This document shows positions 3,121-18,800 of a stretch of 18,875 nt of DNA, in pieces. The notes under the pieces were generated by a model. It searched no databases. It had not been told where the DNA came from and worked only from the letters and a program-made list of their open reading frames with translations. Numbering within the stretch: position 1 is the stretch's first letter; each line of letters begins with the position of its first letter. The position numbers and the translations under genes were made by a program. Origin of the DNA: Escherichia coli (lineage in GTDB: Bacteria > Pseudomonadota > Gammaproteobacteria > Enterobacterales > Enterobacteriaceae); NCBI RefSeq assembly GCF_003334335.1, contig NZ_QOWQ01000056.1; one strand, 5' to 3'.

Positions 3121-5223
3121 CTAATTTGTAATTCTAAAAATCCGATCAACTGTTCTTAAAGTTGTCTCTCTATGTGCAATAATCACCCGGGTGATATTCA
3201 TCTTTTTTATAGCAGCATTCACGAAACGTTCACTTTCTGTATCAAGAGAACTTGTAGCCTCATCCATAAATAATATTCCAGGTTTCCGGTATAAAGCTCG
3301 GGCAATGAATATACGCTGTTTTTGACCGCCGGAAAGACCTTCCCCCAGTTCACCTATTAACGTTTCATACCCCATTGGCATTTTCATTATCACATCATGA
3401 ATATGACTTGCTCTGGCACATTCTGTCATCCATTCGTCGTCTGTTTCTTCTGCAAACCCACAGATATTTTCACGAATTGATCCTGAAAATAGCCGGTCGT
3501 CCTGCATAACACAGGCTATCATACGGTGATAATTATTTATTCCAAGTTGACGTATATCCGTGCCATTAACCAGTACTTTTCCACTATCTGGTTCAAACAG
3601 TCCACATAATACTTTCATTAATGTGGTTTTTCCGGCACCGGAGGCACCAGTTATAGCCACACTTTCTCCCGGAGCCACAGACAAATTCAGACCACTGAAT
3701 ACCTGTGCTGACTGGCTGTCATACCGGTAGCTTAAATCAGTGGTTTCCAGTGAAACCGGGCTCATGTCAGCAACGATTTCAATTTCCGGTTTCTTTTCTT
3801 CCTTTTCATGTAGTGCAATATCTGCAATGCGCTCATTATGCAGACTCATTATTCTCAGTTGAAGAAGAAAACTGGTCAGCGAAGCAACCCGATCCGAAAA
3901 CTGCCCACGAAAAGAACCAAATGCCACAAACATCCCTATTGTCATCTGATTATCGATCACAAGGCTTGCACCCAGCCATAAAATCGCCACCTGATCACAG
4001 GCGGCAACAAAAGTATTTATCCCCCCGAAGAGCAAATCCATCCTGGTTAACTTAATACCTGAATTGATCGCATCTATTTTCAGGTTAAGCCAGTGTGTTC
4101 CCCGAATCCCAGCCATACCCTGGATTTTTACCGTGGCAATACCATACAGGCTTTCCATAAAATAGGAGCTGGCCCGGGCCCCCCTGACAAGAGTTTCTTC
4201 CGATATTTGCCGGTAATAGCCGTATGTCACCAGACGAATAAGAACGTAAACCATGGTAAAACCGAGCACTATCCAGGTAAGATATCCTCCATATAACAGC
4301 ATCATCACAAAAACACCCACAACCATAATACTGTCCATGATTGCCCCAACAACACAGGTGGTAAAGGTGGCCCTCAAAGTGTCAAGGGAGCCAAAACGCG
4401 ACTGGATATCACCTAATTTACGGCGTTCAAAAAACGCCAGCGGCAGTCTGAGAAGATGGTTAAACAGACCCGACTGCCACTGTATATTGATGAGCGTGCT
4501 CATAACCAGTGAGGACCATGCACGCAGCATACTCACCGCGGCCCTGAGCAATATAAAGAACATCAGGCCAGCAGAAATAAGCGTCAGCAGCCCTCTGTCC
4601 CCCGCCGGAATCGCATGATCCATAACCAGCTGAGTTCCCACCGGCATTACCAGATTGATTGCTTCAATTACAACTGACAGACAGAAAATTTTCGCCAGTG
4701 TTCTTTTAATACCGTAAATACTGTTAATCAGTGAACGGAGACTTATGCGGGTCTGCTGGGTTTCCGCCAGGAATTCACTTCCGGGCCAGACCTCAAGTGC
4801 AATGCCCGTAAAATACCGGCTCATTTCCTCCCGACCGAGATATCTTCTGCCTCTGGCCGGATCATGCAGTACATAACGGTTACGCTTTACGCTGACCAGC
4901 ACGACGAAGTGACTGAAATCCCAGTGGAGAATACACGGCATTTTGAGGGCACCAAGTTCATCCAGCTCCAGTGAAAGAGCCCGGGTGACCATCCCCAGCT
5001 GCTCCGCTATTCCATTGATTCCTGCAAGGTTTGCTCCACGGGCCGAGAGATTAAACTTCCGGCGAAGAGATATCAGGTCAATATTCTTACCAAAATGACC
5101 GCATATCATTGCCAGGCAGGCCAGTCCACATTCAGCGGTCTCCGTCTGATGAATAACCGGAACACGACGTCGCCAGCGCATATCAAGCTGATTTATAATT
5201 TGTCTGAAATTCCCGTTAGTCAT
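3121..5223 (-). CDS. mchF: Microcin export ABC transporter with N-terminal C39 peptidase domain (CvaB/MchF family)
   Basis: About 700 aa. C39 catalytic Cys context [14 protein letters not shown]; Walker [10 protein letters not shown]; ABC signature LSGGQKQR; Walker [10 protein letters not shown]. The track ORF (to 5241) begins at GTG; the ATG at 5223 ([10 protein letters not shown]) has AGGA 9 nt upstream and overlaps the mchE stop by 8 nt, as in cvaA/cvaB. Confidence 0.93.
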
Positions 5224-14407: not shown

Positions 14408-14644
14408 TCATGCAGCTGCTCCTCGTGATTCCTCAATTCGCTGCTGCATCCACTGCTCCACTTCACTTTTGTACCAGCGGCTGCTGCGACCCAGTTTTAT
14501 GGGTTTAGGAAAATGACCTTCACTGATCAGCTTGTAAAACCATTTATCGGTCATACCGGTGAAACTGGTGATGTAGTTCATGTCGATCAGGGGATCGTCG
14601 GCACGCAGCAATACACTGTCGTGGCCTGTTATTGAGGTCAACAT
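14408..14644 (-). CDS. alpA: AlpA-family phage/island transcriptional regulator (excisionase-like DNA-binding protein)
   Basis: MTDKWFYKLISEGHFPKPIKLGRSSRWYKSEVEQWMQQR fits the AlpA-type helix-turn-helix pattern. ATG at 14644 with GAGGA upstream; alternative internal ATG at 14581 would give 57 aa. Confidence 0.75.
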   Translation of the reverse strand: MLTSITGHDSVLLRADDPLIDMNYITSFTGMTDKWFYKLISEGHFPKPIKLGRSSRWYKSEVEQWMQQRIEESRGAAA

Positions 14645-14712: not shown

Positions 14713-15288
14713 TCAGAACAGTCCTGCAGATCCGGGATAGCCGGGATTACCGGCGAGGCAACGGGCTTCCGGATCGCACACACCACGACGATCGCGGGCG
14801 AAATCACTGAACGCCCAGATCAAGTCTTTGAGGATGTCTTCGCAGTCCGGTGAACGACTGTCCAGCACCACATCCCGGGTGATCTGCTTCTGGTACGGTG
14901 CTGCTTCACCCGGTGATGCGAAGCCCAGTACGTTGCTCCAGGCATCCAGAATCAGCCGATCCAGTTCAGGGCCGTCGAAATACTCTTGTCTGACGCATAA
15001 CACCACGTGGTATTCCGGCTTTTCCGGATGACGGGTCAGGAGCCAGCAAAGGTCGCGTCCGGGTTTCGCATTCATCAGCGCACTGACGGTTTCGATAAAA
15101 TCCATACCAAACCAGGTCTGTCTGCTGTTGAAGGCGTTGTCATGTTCCCACGGCAGACGAAGCAGGATCCGCCGTATCCGTGAGCCGGACTGCTCACGCA
15201 GCGCACGCTCAAGGACGCCGATGACTTTGTTCTGATAAGATGGCCAGAAGGGTGCCAGGCTATAGTCGAAATAAGGAATAGCATTCAT
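14713..15288 (-). CDS. Inovirus Gp2-family (YagK/YfjJ-like) protein, about 191 aa
   Basis: The track ORF starts at TTG (15318); first ATG at 15288 (MNAIPYFDYSLAPFW...). Contains a YHVVLCV segment and shares overall pattern with the upstream paralog. This family is typical of P4-like islands next to alpA. Confidence 0.6.
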   Translation of the reverse strand: MNAIPYFDYSLAPFWPSYQNKVIGVLERALREQSGSRIRRILLRLPWEHDNAFNSRQTWFGMDFIETVSALMNAKPGRDLCWLLTRHPEKPEYHVVLCVRQEYFDGPELDRLILDAWSNVLGFASPGEAAPYQKQITRDVVLDSRSPDCEDILKDLIWAFSDFARDRRGVCDPEARCLAGNPGYPGSAGLF

Positions 15289-15535
15289 AAGATATGTTCC
15301 GTTATGCGCAGCCCACAATGCGTCCTGCCCGTGAATGAGCTGACGTGTTATGGCTTGCGGAATGAGATTGATGGAATAAGTGAAGAACCGAAGCAGAACG
15401 GGAAGACAAGGAACAAAACACCGGATGCAGGTTCAGGATGAATGATCTCCGTTGACTTCAGTTCACATCATTAATCAAGGCGGTAAGTTTTTACCGACGG
15501 AGTGTTTCCAGGAGCGAAGGCTCAGGCCTTAAGCT

Positions 15536-16102
15536 TCAGAAGTGAGGCTTACGAGGACGCCCTGCAGCAGGACGTTCAGGAACTTCATTGCAGCCGTAGG
15601 CACACAACCCGTCTTTTTGCTCTTCTTTCGCCAGATAATGCAGAGCACCGCGAATATTATCGATGCTTTCAGGCTCGTTATGACGCACAGGAATGTTGAT
15701 GTTGTATGTATAATGCGGCTGATATGTACAGCAGTGTGCCGAACCGCTGTTATGCGTAATAGACCGCCAGCATTCCGTAATCCGCTCCGCAAAGGGATAT
15801 ATTTTTTTAACCCTCTGACGATCGATCCAGAAAACCACATGCGCATGAAAACCATGATCAACCGTCCATTCAATCACCCAGAAGAAGCCAACCATATTTT
15901 CAAATTGTTCAACCTGCTCCAGCAGCATACGCAACTGCAATTCAAGCCAGCGATGATCAGGTTGTAAGAAATCGGGCGTATCTTTCCTGTAGAAGAAATC
16001 CATCCGTAAGGCCCGCAGGCAGGAATAGCGTGCCATCATTTGATTGATGTGATTGTCAAGTAAAGCGGTAAAAAACCAGTTTGGTGTGTAAGATTTAGGC
16101 AT
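15536..16102 (-). CDS. Inovirus Gp2-family (YagK/YfjJ-like) protein with HUH-like motif (FHAHVVFW), 188 aa
   Basis: ATG at 16102 with AGGAG 8-12 nt upstream. HAHVVF resembles the HUH motif of rolling-circle initiators from which this family derives. Tandem with the 14713-15288 paralog. Confidence 0.65.
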   Translation of the reverse strand: MPKSYTPNWFFTALLDNHINQMMARYSCLRALRMDFFYRKDTPDFLQPDHRWLELQLRMLLEQVEQFENMVGFFWVIEWTVDHGFHAHVVFWIDRQRVKKIYPFAERITECWRSITHNSGSAHCCTYQPHYTYNINIPVRHNEPESIDNIRGALHYLAKEEQKDGLCAYGCNEVPERPAAGRPRKPHF

Positions 16103-17585
16103 GTTGATGACTCCTGAAAGTTAATGATGTTTTAAGCTCTGTGAACGAATTAATGCTTTCGCTCATAATCAGATCTAAAACGGTAATAACTTACAGACGG
16201 TATTTATCAGGCATGCTGTAGCAGAATGGATACGACGGGTTATTAACGATACGCAGCATTATGCAGAAAGAAATGGATTATCTGATGGTATTAGCTAAAG
16301 AGATGAGATAAACGAGGAGTAAAGAAAATACAGACTCAATAAAACATCACGAAATACTGCAAAATACGCGATAAAACACCACGACCAGAAGGTTAAGAAA
16401 CATATTGCGACCAATCACATCATAAACTACAAACTTGCTCTCAGTGGTTGTAAAAACCGAGTACAAGGCCAATGCAATAAACTTATATGTGCTCATTCAA
16501 TCTGTTCTTAAGGACATGAACATTCACGGCTCACGATAGCAGAATAAAAAATACCACTGACATGATTTTCATCCTGCATCTTAGATAATACAACCCAGAA
16601 CAAACATAATCAGGAATCTCTCCTGTCAATTCCATTGTTTATCCAGCTCTGTTAATCGTTACAGAATCATGGATACCTTATCAAAAAGTAAACATTCGGT
16701 TAATCAGTGATGACAGAGGAATTGATGTTCATCAGAATAGTTAAAACACTTCAGGTCAACAACAATCATCGTTAAGCAAATACGATTCATGATGGATAAG
16801 ATTAAAATCAATTGCTGTTGCAGTGAAGACTGATAACAGATGGATATCAGCAACAGCGTAGTAGAGAATAACTTATCTGAATATTATATGAGTTACAGTA
16901 GTTATGATTGAATGAAAGGGAAGTTGATATTGTGATAATGGCGACAAAAAAGATTAGAGAAGGACATGAGTGAGTAAAGACAGAGTGAATAAAGATAGAG
17001 ATTATTTAAAAAGGGAGTGAGTATAGTTGAATGAGAGTAAGAGTAATGGAATGTGTAAAAACAGAGAGTGAATATAATTATAGTAATAAACCTAAATTAA
17101 AGTCATCCATGTTTGATGAGTAAAAATAATGTCAGAAAATGAATTTGTTTGAAAATTTTTCTCAGAGATAACCGTTCTGATGCTCAACGAACTCAATAAA
17201 TTGGCTAAGTCAGGTTACCTCATCCACACTCTATTTATTTTTATAAGAACCAATCATTTTGATCACCTACCGAGACACATCAATTTAGTGATGCGATAGT
17301 ATTGTATTGGTTATATAGATATTTATCGTTGTTGCCAATGCCCGGATTATTGGCCTCCAGGTATTCTCTTTACTTACAAACTAATTTTGAAACAGAGGTC
17401 GCTCCATTTTAGGAGTAGAATCTATGTAAAAGTCTGCTATGAGTGAGGAGCGAAAGTTTGATTGTCCCTCTAGGCTAGCTAATGAAAAAACTGAATTTTG
17501 AGCATTATTGCACGATAATCTTAGAGGTTGGTTACAGAATGTTGTGATATGATCCTCGATCACTTTAACTCATTGAATTTAAATT

Positions 17586-18800
17586 ATGGACAGTGGATTC
17601 GTAGATCTCGATATACTTCTTACACGAATTAGGCATGCCCAGTCGAAAACATACTTTCTTGATGCCGTTAAGGCCTACAAAGCGGGCGCGTTGAGGGGGG
17701 CACTAACTTCCGCTTGGGTTGCTCTCGTCTACGATCTGATAGCCAAATATCGTGAGCTTAGTGCCATGGGCGATGCAGCAGCGACTGCATTTCTTAATAC
17801 TTGGGACAACGCGACTAAATCAGGTGACATCCCTAAACTTCTCCAACTTGAGGGGGGCATTCTTGAAGACGCAACGGCCAATGCTCAGGTAGTCAACCGG
17901 TTAGCCCGAACTCACTTAGACCGTCTTCGCGAGGATAGGCATCTTTGCGCGCATCCAGCATTCTCAGCAGAAGCAGATCTATTCGAACCTTCTCATGAGT
18001 TAGTGCGACTTCATTTAGTAAATGCTGTGGAATTCGTCCTATCGCAAGAACCTTTACAGGGAAAAGCAATATTCGAGTTATATGACGTTGATGTTCAATC
18101 GCCCGGTTTTCCTACGGACAGTAAACGCATTCTTGATTATGTAGAACAACGTTATCTTACTCGCGTACGCGCTCAGAATATCAGTAACTTCGGCACGATT
18201 CTCGCCAAATCACTTCTCAAAGGTGTGCCAGAACAATGGGAAACGCTTTATCACCAGATTATTACATCATTAGTCGCCGTACGAGACCGCGCCAGCATTG
18301 CTTGGCCAAACGTTTCACTGTCAATTGTTAGGCTTATTGATAATCTAGAACCACGACATCGGCCTAGAGCGATCGCATTTATTGCCGCATTTAATGAGTT
18401 TTGGATGCAGCTTCAGGAGCCAACGCGAACAGTCTTGCTAGAGACTATTGAAAATGCCAATCCAGAAAATATCACTGATTACCGTATTTTGACTGGTGTA
18501 ACTTTCGTACCGTTTCAAGCCTCGCTGCAAAGGCTAATAACGGGACTAACTCAACAGCAGTTGGCCTCAGCGATCATCTTTAACCCACTTGCTGAACTTT
18601 GGGATAAGGCAATAGAATACTATGCAGAATCAGGTAGCTGGCGTGGATCTGAGGGGAACTTTATTTCTCTCGTCATACCGTTTTCTGGCCGCCTTAGTCA
18701 GCAACAGTTCGACCAACTTCTAGATGCTATCATTTCCAATACGCAGAATTGGGATGCCGCTGAGACGCCTAAGCTTCTCCTAGGAATGCTCCGCAATTGA
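17586..18800 (+). CDS. Hypothetical protein, 404 aa, no family recognised; N-terminal region has a HEPN-like R-x5-H motif (RLREDRH)
   Basis: Long clean ORF with ATG at 17586 and stop TGA at 18798-18800 abutting the right inverted repeat; balanced, non-repetitive composition typical of a globular protein. No convincing Shine-Dalgarno. The HEPN suggestion rests on one short motif. Confidence 0.55.
   Translation: MDSGFVDLDILLTRIRHAQSKTYFLDAVKAYKAGALRGALTSAWVALVYDLIAKYRELSAMGDAAATAFLNTWDNATKSGDIPKLLQLEGGILEDATANAQVVNRLARTHLDRLREDRHLCAHPAFSAEADLFEPSHELVRLHLVNAVEFVLSQEPLQGKAIFELYDVDVQSPGFPTDSKRILDYVEQRYLTRVRAQNISNFGTILAKSLLKGVPEQWETLYHQIITSLVAVRDRASIAWPNVSLSIVRLIDNLEPRHRPRAIAFIAAFNEFWMQLQEPTRTVLLETIENANPENITDYRILTGVTFVPFQASLQRLITGLTQQQLASAIIFNPLAELWDKAIEYYAESGSWRGSEGNFISLVIPFSGRLSQQQFDQLLDAIISNTQNWDAAETPKLLLGMLRN

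Follow-up and report, generated by a model that had tools for sequence, protein, structure and literature searches.

The DNA sites of HUH-class Rep proteins are short direct repeats next to, or within, the promoters of the proteins' own genes, and the iterons of geminiviruses and the bind locus of pMV158 RepB are among the Rep-binding elements of HUH initiators. Iteron origins adjoin initiator genes in P4-like satellites and in phage-inducible chromosomal islands (PICIs), and long Rho-sensitive 5′ leaders exist for horizontally acquired and stress genes in Escherichia coli and Salmonella. The Rep protein of adeno-associated virus (AAV) binds GAGC and GAGT (GAGY) tetranucleotide repeats, one monomer per repeat, and a Rep site within its own p5 promoter mediates autoregulation (PMC2900306). 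AlpA of Pseudomonas aeruginosa is an antiterminator, with its binding element in the promoter spacer and the terminators in the leader (PMC7969949), and comparable Pseudomonas islands carry Gp2-like and AlpA genes at one end (10.1101/2024.08.29.610337). Here we describe a non-coding region of 1.48 kb, positions 16103–17585 of an 18,875-nucleotide (nt) stretch of E. coli DNA (contig NZ_QOWQ01000056.1; the whole stretch is called the window below), which adjoins the minus-strand gene for a 188-amino-acid (aa) Rep-like protein of the YagK/YfjJ family. The window is part of an E. coli genomic island with a microcin H47 cluster. In the literature found, the YagK/YfjJ ('inovirus Gp2-type') family appeared only in gene lists and annotation tables, and no cis element for it was described.

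With moderate confidence, and on the strength of sequence comparison, we read the region as a cis-acting control region of a minus-strand backbone operon that encodes the Rep-like protein, a hypothetical protein and an AlpA-family protein. It would consist of a promoter/operator, an iteron-like array and a long leader. Its parts, in order of increasing distance from the 188-aa gene, are as follows.

16103–16225, minus strand: near-invariant proximal 5′ untranslated block, with invariant runs at 16105–16127, 16146–16197 and 16199–16220 in 14 sequences
16226–16899, minus strand: putative leader body, an AT-rich spacer with divergence 0.15, indels and folding z of about 0
16900–17075, minus strand: iteron-like array (the purine tract of the plus strand), with YACTC cores in TAYTCACTC units, read on the plus strand as (GAGT)(GAGT/GAAT)
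17076–17106, minus strand: conserved promoter-like/operator box, with a −35-like ATGACT (17106..17101), an 18-nt spacer and a −10 TATAAT (17082..17077)

Conservation of the region and linkage of the box to YagK-like genes

Among 5426 complete E. coli genomes searched with megablast, 1573 contain the region (1575 matching records; approximately 29%). All matches start at the 188-aa gene and extend outward from it for 256 to 1350 nt, and the neighbour at the far side changes by strain: PD-T7-3, a TIR protein, DUF6530, dsdA, restriction enzymes, insertion sequences (IS) or a YfjI-family gene running in the same direction as the module. It is thus the minus-strand module to which the region belongs. 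Matches on plasmids were set aside as uninformative, being island fragments beside IS elements. Sensitive alignment across strains placed the common core at 16103 to about 17130. Two parts of it stood out in 14 sequences, 16105–16220, which was almost invariant, and a 25-nt block at 17078–17102, which was 98% conserved. The whole unit from motif to gene is kept in 13 of 14 E. coli-type loci (the exception, L013 in our numbering of related loci, is interrupted by IS3), and ATCC 11775 retains just the first 256 nt of the region, followed by IS3. The 188-aa gene itself is under purifying selection (substitutions at the three codon positions 358, 214 and 925; divergence at 4-fold sites 0.088).

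The conserved 25-nt block coincides with the best σ70-like site of the region. The box, ATGACT-18-TATAAT, scored 10/12 in a σ70 promoter scan and is directed at the 188-aa gene, and the scan gave no other minus-strand promoter-like site between 17106 and that gene. The 18-nt spacer contains TTTAGGTTTATTAC, and a 20-nt motif with a perfect TATAAT, TTAGGTTTATTACTATAATT, lies at 17095..17076 on the minus strand.

Relatives were gathered by searches for homologous proteins and for the contigs that encode them; a direct scan of genome contigs with the 188-aa protein gave only 3 loci. In the 308 kb of DNA fetched, a degenerate form of the motif, TTRGGTTWWTTAMTRTWATT, was found once per locus, always upstream of and co-oriented with a YagK-like gene. 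It was found again in four further loci, giving a total of 22 loci in at least 6 genera. The carriers were E. coli, Salmonella, Klebsiella, Enterobacter, Serratia fonticola and Budvicia aquatica, together with metagenomic and read-assembly contigs. The YagK-like proteins beside the motif include ones only 36–58% identical to the 188-aa protein of the window, and nhmmer with a profile of the E. coli leader recovered only the box in other subfamilies. Across subfamilies the −10 element is conserved and the −35 element is weak and variable; in a Salmonella locus (L025) the same register was called as TGAACA-18-TATTAT. The distance from box to start codon is 128–236 nt in most relatives, and 790–1079 nt in the E. 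coli 188-aa type, Budvicia and S. fonticola. As a negative control, the exact motif was searched for in 2.9 million viral contigs. This gave 34 matches, all of them lacking an array and a neighbouring YagK-like gene. The linkage of motif to gene, rather than the word itself, is the signal.

Several observations weigh against the promoter that we propose. It was recognised by its likeness to the consensus, and the region as a whole shows no enrichment, with 5 promoter-like sites where 8 are expected. Its −35 hexamer is poor and not conserved, TGTTAT replaces TATAAT in the Budvicia copy, and K-12 yagK and the 243-aa paralogues have neither the motif nor the array.

Further loci were recorded beside this comparison. 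The K-12 yfjI–yfjJ spacer (L003 7396–7547, upstream of yfjJ) has no box; a single ACTTACTC, preceded by GGTAATATATAGG, is found there 32 nt before the start codon, and this ACTTACTC word may be a degenerate relic of the same control element. A second stretch of about 1.48 kb with no open reading frame (ORF) longer than 58 aa (L002 12629–14109) precedes a 243-aa 'inovirus Gp2 family' paralogue in the same island; it shares neither homology with the region described here nor the motif. GC-rich hairpins with no clear U-tracts lie between box and YagK-like start codon in Klebsiella (L024 3919–3940) and Salmonella (L025, about 3945–3965), and are possible attenuators of these short leaders.

The repeat array and the putative leader

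The array begins 5 nt after TATAAT on the strand of the gene. In the first 220 nt after the motif YACTC occurs in 8 sense copies, with 0.26 expected, and in no antisense copy; the offsets in the window are 5, 30, 36, 52, 56, 88, 99 and 103. The same DNA had been described from its plus strand in the initial annotation, as a G/A-rich tract at roughly 16900–17080 with repeated gagtgaata-like words, and both features were recovered. The tract contains A 81, G 51, T 44 and C 5 (73% purine) and is the second most strand-asymmetric of 1870 windows. GAGTGARTA occurs four times between 16968 and 17074, always on the plus strand, where 0.27 copies would be expected in the whole 18.9 kb; four copies were reached in none of 200 shuffles. 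Tandem Repeats Finder (TRF) reported a 15-nt unit in 2.5 copies, and a repeat search found a 12-mer family and one 25-nt pair.

The first YACTC copy lies at +5 or +6 in almost all relatives, and those with short leaders have a single copy at the same offset. S. fonticola (L030) has 8 copies starting from the identical offset, the first five spaced 23–24 nt apart (TRF period 23, 3.3 copies). The long leaders of E. coli, Serratia and Budvicia have no homology to one another beyond the box, by nhmmer or blastn. That E. coli and S. fonticola nevertheless both have, at the same position, repeats of one core in one orientation argues that the repeats are functional. The array is also of the kind expected of an HUH Rep-binding element, a cluster of short direct repeats in a single orientation near an initiator gene. 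Less favourable to the control-region reading are the irregular spacing of the array in E. coli, a mutation of its first copy (to TTTATTC) in several strains, and a copy number of 3 to 8 with indels of whole units. Moreover, Budvicia has a leader of about 1 kb without an array and without C-richness.

The assignment of the 188-aa protein as HUH Rep-like is well supported by invariant motifs, fold and a Pfam match (REP_ORF2-G2P). Alignment of 27 family members, including K-12 YfjJ and YagK at 17–20% identity, gave eight invariant residues (R33, D35, E78, H86, H88, Y156, K159 and K163), which include an H-x-H and a Y-x-x-K motif. In fold comparison the AlphaFold model (predicted local distance difference test score, pLDDT, 89) matched SIRV1 ORF119 Rep (8.1), MVM NS1 (7.9), AAV5 Rep (7.7) and B19 NS1 (7.6). 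The specific structural neighbours are thus origin-binding nickase domains (SIRV1 Rep, parvoviral NS1 and AAV Rep); the Foldseek ranking is noisy and generic α/β folds score similarly, so that the fold match alone is modest. A sequence search of the PDB with the family profile gave no match. As would be expected beside an HUH Rep origin, the adjacent gene therefore encodes an initiator-like protein with HUH and catalytic tyrosine motifs and a Rep nickase fold.

These features bear on a second explanation, that box and array are primarily a replication origin, where the Rep-like protein, or the YfjI helicase whose gene directly precedes the region in some islands, binds the repeats and nicks or unwinds the DNA for rolling-circle or P4-type replication of the excised island. 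This is a serious and non-exclusive alternative, which overlaps the control-region reading and would make the likeness to a promoter secondary; we regard it as possible, though less likely than not. The HUH/YxxK character of the adjacent gene, the single orientation of the direct repeats, their 23-nt period in S. fonticola and the AT-rich setting all speak for it. The initiator precedes the origin in P4 and PICI elements, and the order in L014 and L016 is similar, with a YfjI-family gene (annotated in K-12 as DUF3987 domain-containing protein YfjI) ending about 0.5 kb upstream of the box on the same strand. In addition, AAV Rep origins use GAGY repeats (PMC2900306). However, no conserved hairpin or recognisable nick motif was identified beside the array: a small inverted repeat at 17101–17117 is lost in L011 and L016, and the sole strong conserved hairpin (16114–16196) lies about 800 nt away, at the ribosome-binding site. 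A search of the region for DnaA boxes and GATC clusters gave no full DnaA box, only the partial words TTATCCA and ATCCACA. The presence of one repeat copy only in short-leader relatives, and the erosion and variable copy number of the array, also speak against an origin. The excess of C over G runs through the spacers between the repeats, which DNA binding alone does not explain, and replication of such islands was not reported in the literature found. An iteron-type theta origin fits in AT-richness alone, as the spacing is irregular, the cores are 5–9 nt and a full DnaA box is lacking.

On the minus strand the tract contains 51 C and 5 G in 176 nt. The excess of C over G reaches 23 per 80 nt, the maximum for both strands of the whole window (background standard deviation 6.65), and nearly every E. 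coli variant has far more C than G in spite of the indels. The predicted minimum free energy of the tract is 0 kcal/mol, indicating that it is unstructured. C-rich, G-poor and unstructured RNA of at least about 80 nt, as found here, is characteristic of Rho-dependent attenuators. The composition is that expected of a Rho loading site, and suggests that a transcript of the tract would be Rho-sensitive.

A more specific version of the control-region reading would have the island's AlpA-family protein load at the box and act there as a processive antiterminator, with the Rho-sensitive leader as the barrier to be overcome. This version appears improbable to us. It agrees with the presence of an AlpA-family gene in the module (78 aa, PF05930), and with a rut-like tract immediately downstream of the box. 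The most conserved part of the box, TTRGGTTWWTTA, lies between −35 and −10, the position of the AlpA-binding element in P. aeruginosa (PMC7969949), but TTRGGTTWWTTA is unlike the Pseudomonas element GGGACGN5GGTA. Furthermore, the terminators that P. aeruginosa AlpA overrides are intrinsic ones, of which the region has no conserved example. The role otherwise described for AlpA-type proteins of E. coli is activation of integrase genes (cited in 10.1101/2024.08.29.610337). Finally, the AlpA-like gene of the 188-aa type is itself the last gene of this operon, so that a trigger from elsewhere would be required. Two hairpins resembling intrinsic terminators on the minus strand of the leader (16611–16625 and 16367–16383) look unconserved, which weighs against the control-region reading. 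Both were rejected as conserved elements, the stem of the first being disrupted in other strains and the second varying.

Pairwise divergence of the non-coding DNA increases with distance from the 188-aa gene.

16103–16400: non-coding segment, pairwise divergence 0.076
16401–16900: non-coding segment, pairwise divergence 0.151
16901–17130: non-coding segment, pairwise divergence 0.182

The leader body thus diverges faster than synonymous sites (0.15–0.18 compared with 0.088), a result unfavourable to the control-region reading. Most of the leader length may therefore carry no sequence-specific function, and as judged from these alignments most of the length of the region is free of sequence-specific constraint. 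Homology of the leader body is undetectable outside the 188-aa subfamily, and its small ORFs are not conserved in frame. Most of the 970 nt of the putative leader may matter only as length or composition, if at all.

In another reading the region would be functionally inert apart from about 120–250 nt beside the 188-aa gene, consisting of AT-rich, H-NS-coated filler or insertion debris with the purine tract as a decaying minisatellite. It would then persist through its position between a conserved module and a recombination-prone cargo slot. The tolerance of indels and copy-number changes, an ORF content equal to random expectation, the 256 nt that are left in ATCC 11775 and the leaders of 130–240 nt with which most relatives manage are all consistent with this, as is divergence at or above the synonymous rate. 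We nevertheless consider it unlikely that the region is inert. At its far end, the box shows conservation between genera and a strict linkage to the gene, and the whole motif-to-gene unit is kept in nearly all E. coli-type loci (13 of 14). An independent array occupies the same offset in S. fonticola, the strand bias of the tract is the most extreme in the window, and leaders of about 1 kb recur in three lineages. As a separate observation, the S. fonticola leader (L030 1923–3000) is about 1.08 kb long and 57% GC, with no gene call longer than 67 aa, which is less expected by chance than in AT-rich DNA.

The block next to the 188-aa gene behaves differently from the leader body. It is invariant in 14 sequences while nearby 4-fold sites diverge by 0.088, and it can form an imperfect hairpin of 83 nt (16114–16196) whose closing pairs take in the first bases of the CAGGAG ribosome-binding site (16116..16111). 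Plus-strand folding gave a z-score of −3.7 and minus-strand folding z-scores of −2.0 to −2.7, and this was the sole window of the region below −3; outside the 150 nt adjoining the 188-aa gene z-scores were about 0 on both strands. The simplest reading of the hairpin is a 5′ untranslated region (UTR) element that would control translation or mRNA stability. Less favourably, the hairpin varies too little for covariation support, and its few changes go in both directions, one making a pair stronger and two disrupting pairs on the plus strand.

A non-coding RNA of its own, or a small protein, encoded within the region would agree with the invariance of the 16114–16196 block, which folds better than shuffles, and with a 27-aa minus-strand ORF (16704..16790), present in 10 of 14 variants in a better-conserved zone; we regard this possibility as extremely improbable. 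A hidden small RNA had been suggested initially, but Rfam 15 gave no match at gathering thresholds in the window or in L006, L016 and L030, and only sub-threshold noise of small nucleolar and small RNA types at E ≤ 5. The hairpin is better accounted for as a 5′ UTR element, since it adjoins the ribosome-binding site of the 188-aa gene. The promoter scan lists no site beside the hairpin or the 27-aa ORF, and the terminator-like hairpins (16383..16367 and 16625..16611, minus strand) do not flank these candidates, nor is their conservation apparent. The small ORFs, including a plus-strand ORF ending at 17123 as well as 16704..16790 on the minus strand, were rejected on account of many amino-acid replacements and frame-breaking 1-nt indels.

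Coding content, neighbouring genes and the cargo slot

As first annotated, the region has no plus-strand ORF of 60 aa or more and a single minus-strand ORF of 60 aa (17381..17563), and a program-made ORF list gives the same result. Each of the six frames contains 28–47 stops per approximately 494 codons. The longest ORF expected from dinucleotide-matched shuffles was 71 ± 18 aa, and 31% of the shuffles had a longest ORF as short as that observed or shorter. The region therefore behaves as genuine non-coding DNA, and looks like true non-coding DNA in which ORF depletion does not go beyond chance. The unusual trait is the presence of a 1.48-kb gene-free gap within a bacterial genome. The AT-richness noted initially was also borne out: GC content is 34.3% across the region, compared with 42–57% in the flanking genes, and its segments range from 31 to 38%. 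This is the AT-rich composition of H-NS-silenced island DNA, and is compatible with H-NS silencing of the region.

A degraded gene remnant, the first of the explanations proposed with the annotation, found no support. Six-frame translations with stops masked matched no NCBIfam model even at E ≤ 1, and all 14 variants are equally stop-ridden, with no stop-free stretch longer than 83 codons. BLASTN gave no sign of a decayed gene in relatives: under the matches listed, only inserted IS481 copies and one 'hypothetical protein' were annotated, and no pseudogene annotation lay under the E. coli matches listed (1575 records). The further suggestion of a long regulatory or untranslated region for the 404-aa gene on the plus strand proved right as to the kind of element and wrong as to gene and strand, the gene concerned being the minus-strand 188-aa gene. 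Only the last approximately 130 nt of the region, 17453–17585, co-vary with the 404-aa gene. A plus-strand promoter candidate at 16912–16939, from which a purine-rich RNA could be made in the direction of that gene, was rejected because it lies in the least conserved part (49–53% identity).

The genes and segments on either side of the putative control region are as follows.

15536–16102, minus strand: 188-aa YagK/YfjJ-type HUH Rep-like gene, the first gene that the region would serve
14713–15318, minus strand: 201-aa hypothetical gene, no Pfam match
14408–14644, minus strand: 78-aa AlpA-family helix-turn-helix gene (Phage_AlpA PF05930, 2.6e-10)
17131–17452, no strand assigned: second conserved non-coding segment, 81–100% identical in L002 and L008–L012 and replaced by other sequence in L014, L016 and L018
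17453–18800, plus strand: cargo, 133 nt of specific upstream DNA and the 404-aa PD-T7-3-type gene, with a homology break at 17452–17458 across strains

The order of the three minus-strand genes (188, 201 and 78 aa) is kept in all E. coli loci fetched. The position of the alpA-family gene differs by type: it is downstream in the 188-aa type, whereas most loci of a 191-aa type have it directly upstream of the box. In L010, L012, L014 and L018 a third YagK/YfjJ-domain paralogue (182 aa) and a gene for a ProQ/FinO-family RNA-binding protein lie downstream of the AlpA-like gene.

The 404-aa protein (17586–18800) was identified by PADLOC as PD-T7-3 (1.3e-36). Over its full length it matches a 450-aa protein of L008 with 100% identity, yet it stops 46 aa short and may be a C-terminally truncated copy. 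From the alignments, the cargo segment is placed outside the conserved unit, and the region marks the border of a swappable cargo slot, of which it forms the inner edge (the left side of the slot in the window). The slot distal to the non-coding unit, as seen in L002, L008–L012, L014–L018 and L033, also holds remnants of H-NS-family genes in some strains, and judging from its contents behaves as a defence/cargo hotspot. In many genomes IS481 is inserted within the equivalent of 17131–17452, about 120 bp distal to the 20-nt motif (L033 3536–4553; about 17210 in the window). These insertions fall just outside the motif-to-gene unit, which stays intact.

Proposed mechanism and comparison with known systems

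The anatomy of the region, its pattern of conservation, the linkage of motif to gene, the enrichment and strand bias of the repeats and the HUH signature of the adjacent protein are established here. From these we infer promoter activity, a leader transcript, the identity of the binding protein, Rho sensitivity and origin function, in the following way. Transcription would proceed from the box with its −10 TATAAT at 17082..17077, and would start near 17070 on the minus strand, so that the first approximately 170 nt of the transcript would be the YACTC array. As DNA, the array probably provides binding sites for an island protein, most likely the 188-aa Rep-like protein itself, and would serve as an operator and possibly also as the Rep-recognition part of an origin. 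As RNA, its C-rich and G-poor sequence would be a Rho loading site, and this composition suggests that the leader of approximately 970 nt is probably terminated prematurely by default. AlpA-type antitermination is one way in which such a barrier could be overcome. The leader body would be a weakly constrained AT-rich spacer. The near-invariant last 120 nt, which fold into a hairpin touching the ribosome-binding site, suggest control of translation or of mRNA stability.

A bolder form of this proposal combines it with the origin. Box and array would be the recognition origin of a rolling-circle replicon, and YagK/YfjJ proteins would be active HUH initiators that bind to the array, regulate their own promoter and replicate or mobilise excised CP4-57-like defence islands, with the Rho-sensitive leader keeping the system off until an AlpA-type signal arrives. 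We put this forward as speculation that is unlikely to hold. If the origin reading were true, the islands of this subtype alone, present in about 29% of complete E. coli genomes, would be such replicons.

YagK/YfjJ genes belong to the backbone of very common enterobacterial islands with virulence and anti-phage cargo. New here are the invariant HUH/YxxK signature of the family, the strictly linked 20-nt box, the array as a candidate binding site and a defined unit of about 1 kb. The control-region reading accounts for about 1 kb of unannotated DNA that recurs in more than 1500 complete E. coli genomes, and makes the switching-on of the island and its replication after excision directly testable questions.

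Among the systems introduced above, the Rep-binding element and p5 promoter of AAV resemble the region in having short repeats of one orientation beside an initiator gene, within or just after a TATA-type promoter element, and the plus strand of the array, (GAGT)(GAGT/GAAT), itself reads like AAV Rep sites. This likeness is an analogy and not evidence of binding. The region differs in that no nick site or hairpin of the terminal-resolution type was identified beside the array, and in the irregular spacing of the E. coli repeats. The host element is a chromosomal island rather than a virus or plasmid, and the gene lies about 970 nt away instead of immediately downstream.

Antitermination units of the AlpA and λ Q type share with the region an AlpA-family gene in the module, a conserved spacer between −35 and −10 and a putative termination-prone leader. 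They differ in the sequence of the site, and the region has no conserved intrinsic terminator, so that a barrier here would be Rho-dependent. Rho-sensitive leaders are similar in that a long predicted untranslated leader starts with a C-rich, G-poor, unstructured tract; in the present case, unlike theirs, the tract is made of repeats that also resemble DNA-binding sites. The order of a YfjI-family gene followed by AT-rich non-coding DNA with direct repeats in L014 and L016 is like that of P4 and PICI origins. Unlike the iterons of those elements, the cores are 5–9 nt and not 17–22 bp, and box and array accompany the YagK-like gene also in loci without YfjI nearby.

The K-12 islands CP4-57 and CP4-6 (alpA–yfjI–yfjJ and yagK, respectively) have the same protein family with its invariant residues, the same backbone and a defence cargo slot beside a YfjJ-type gene. 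The gaps upstream of K-12 yfjJ and yagK are 152 and 271 bp, and in contrast to the region neither has the motif or the array. The region would thus belong to a known kind of control region, promoter/operator or origin-like, in which iteron-type repeats lie next to an HUH initiator gene, and it overturns no expectations.

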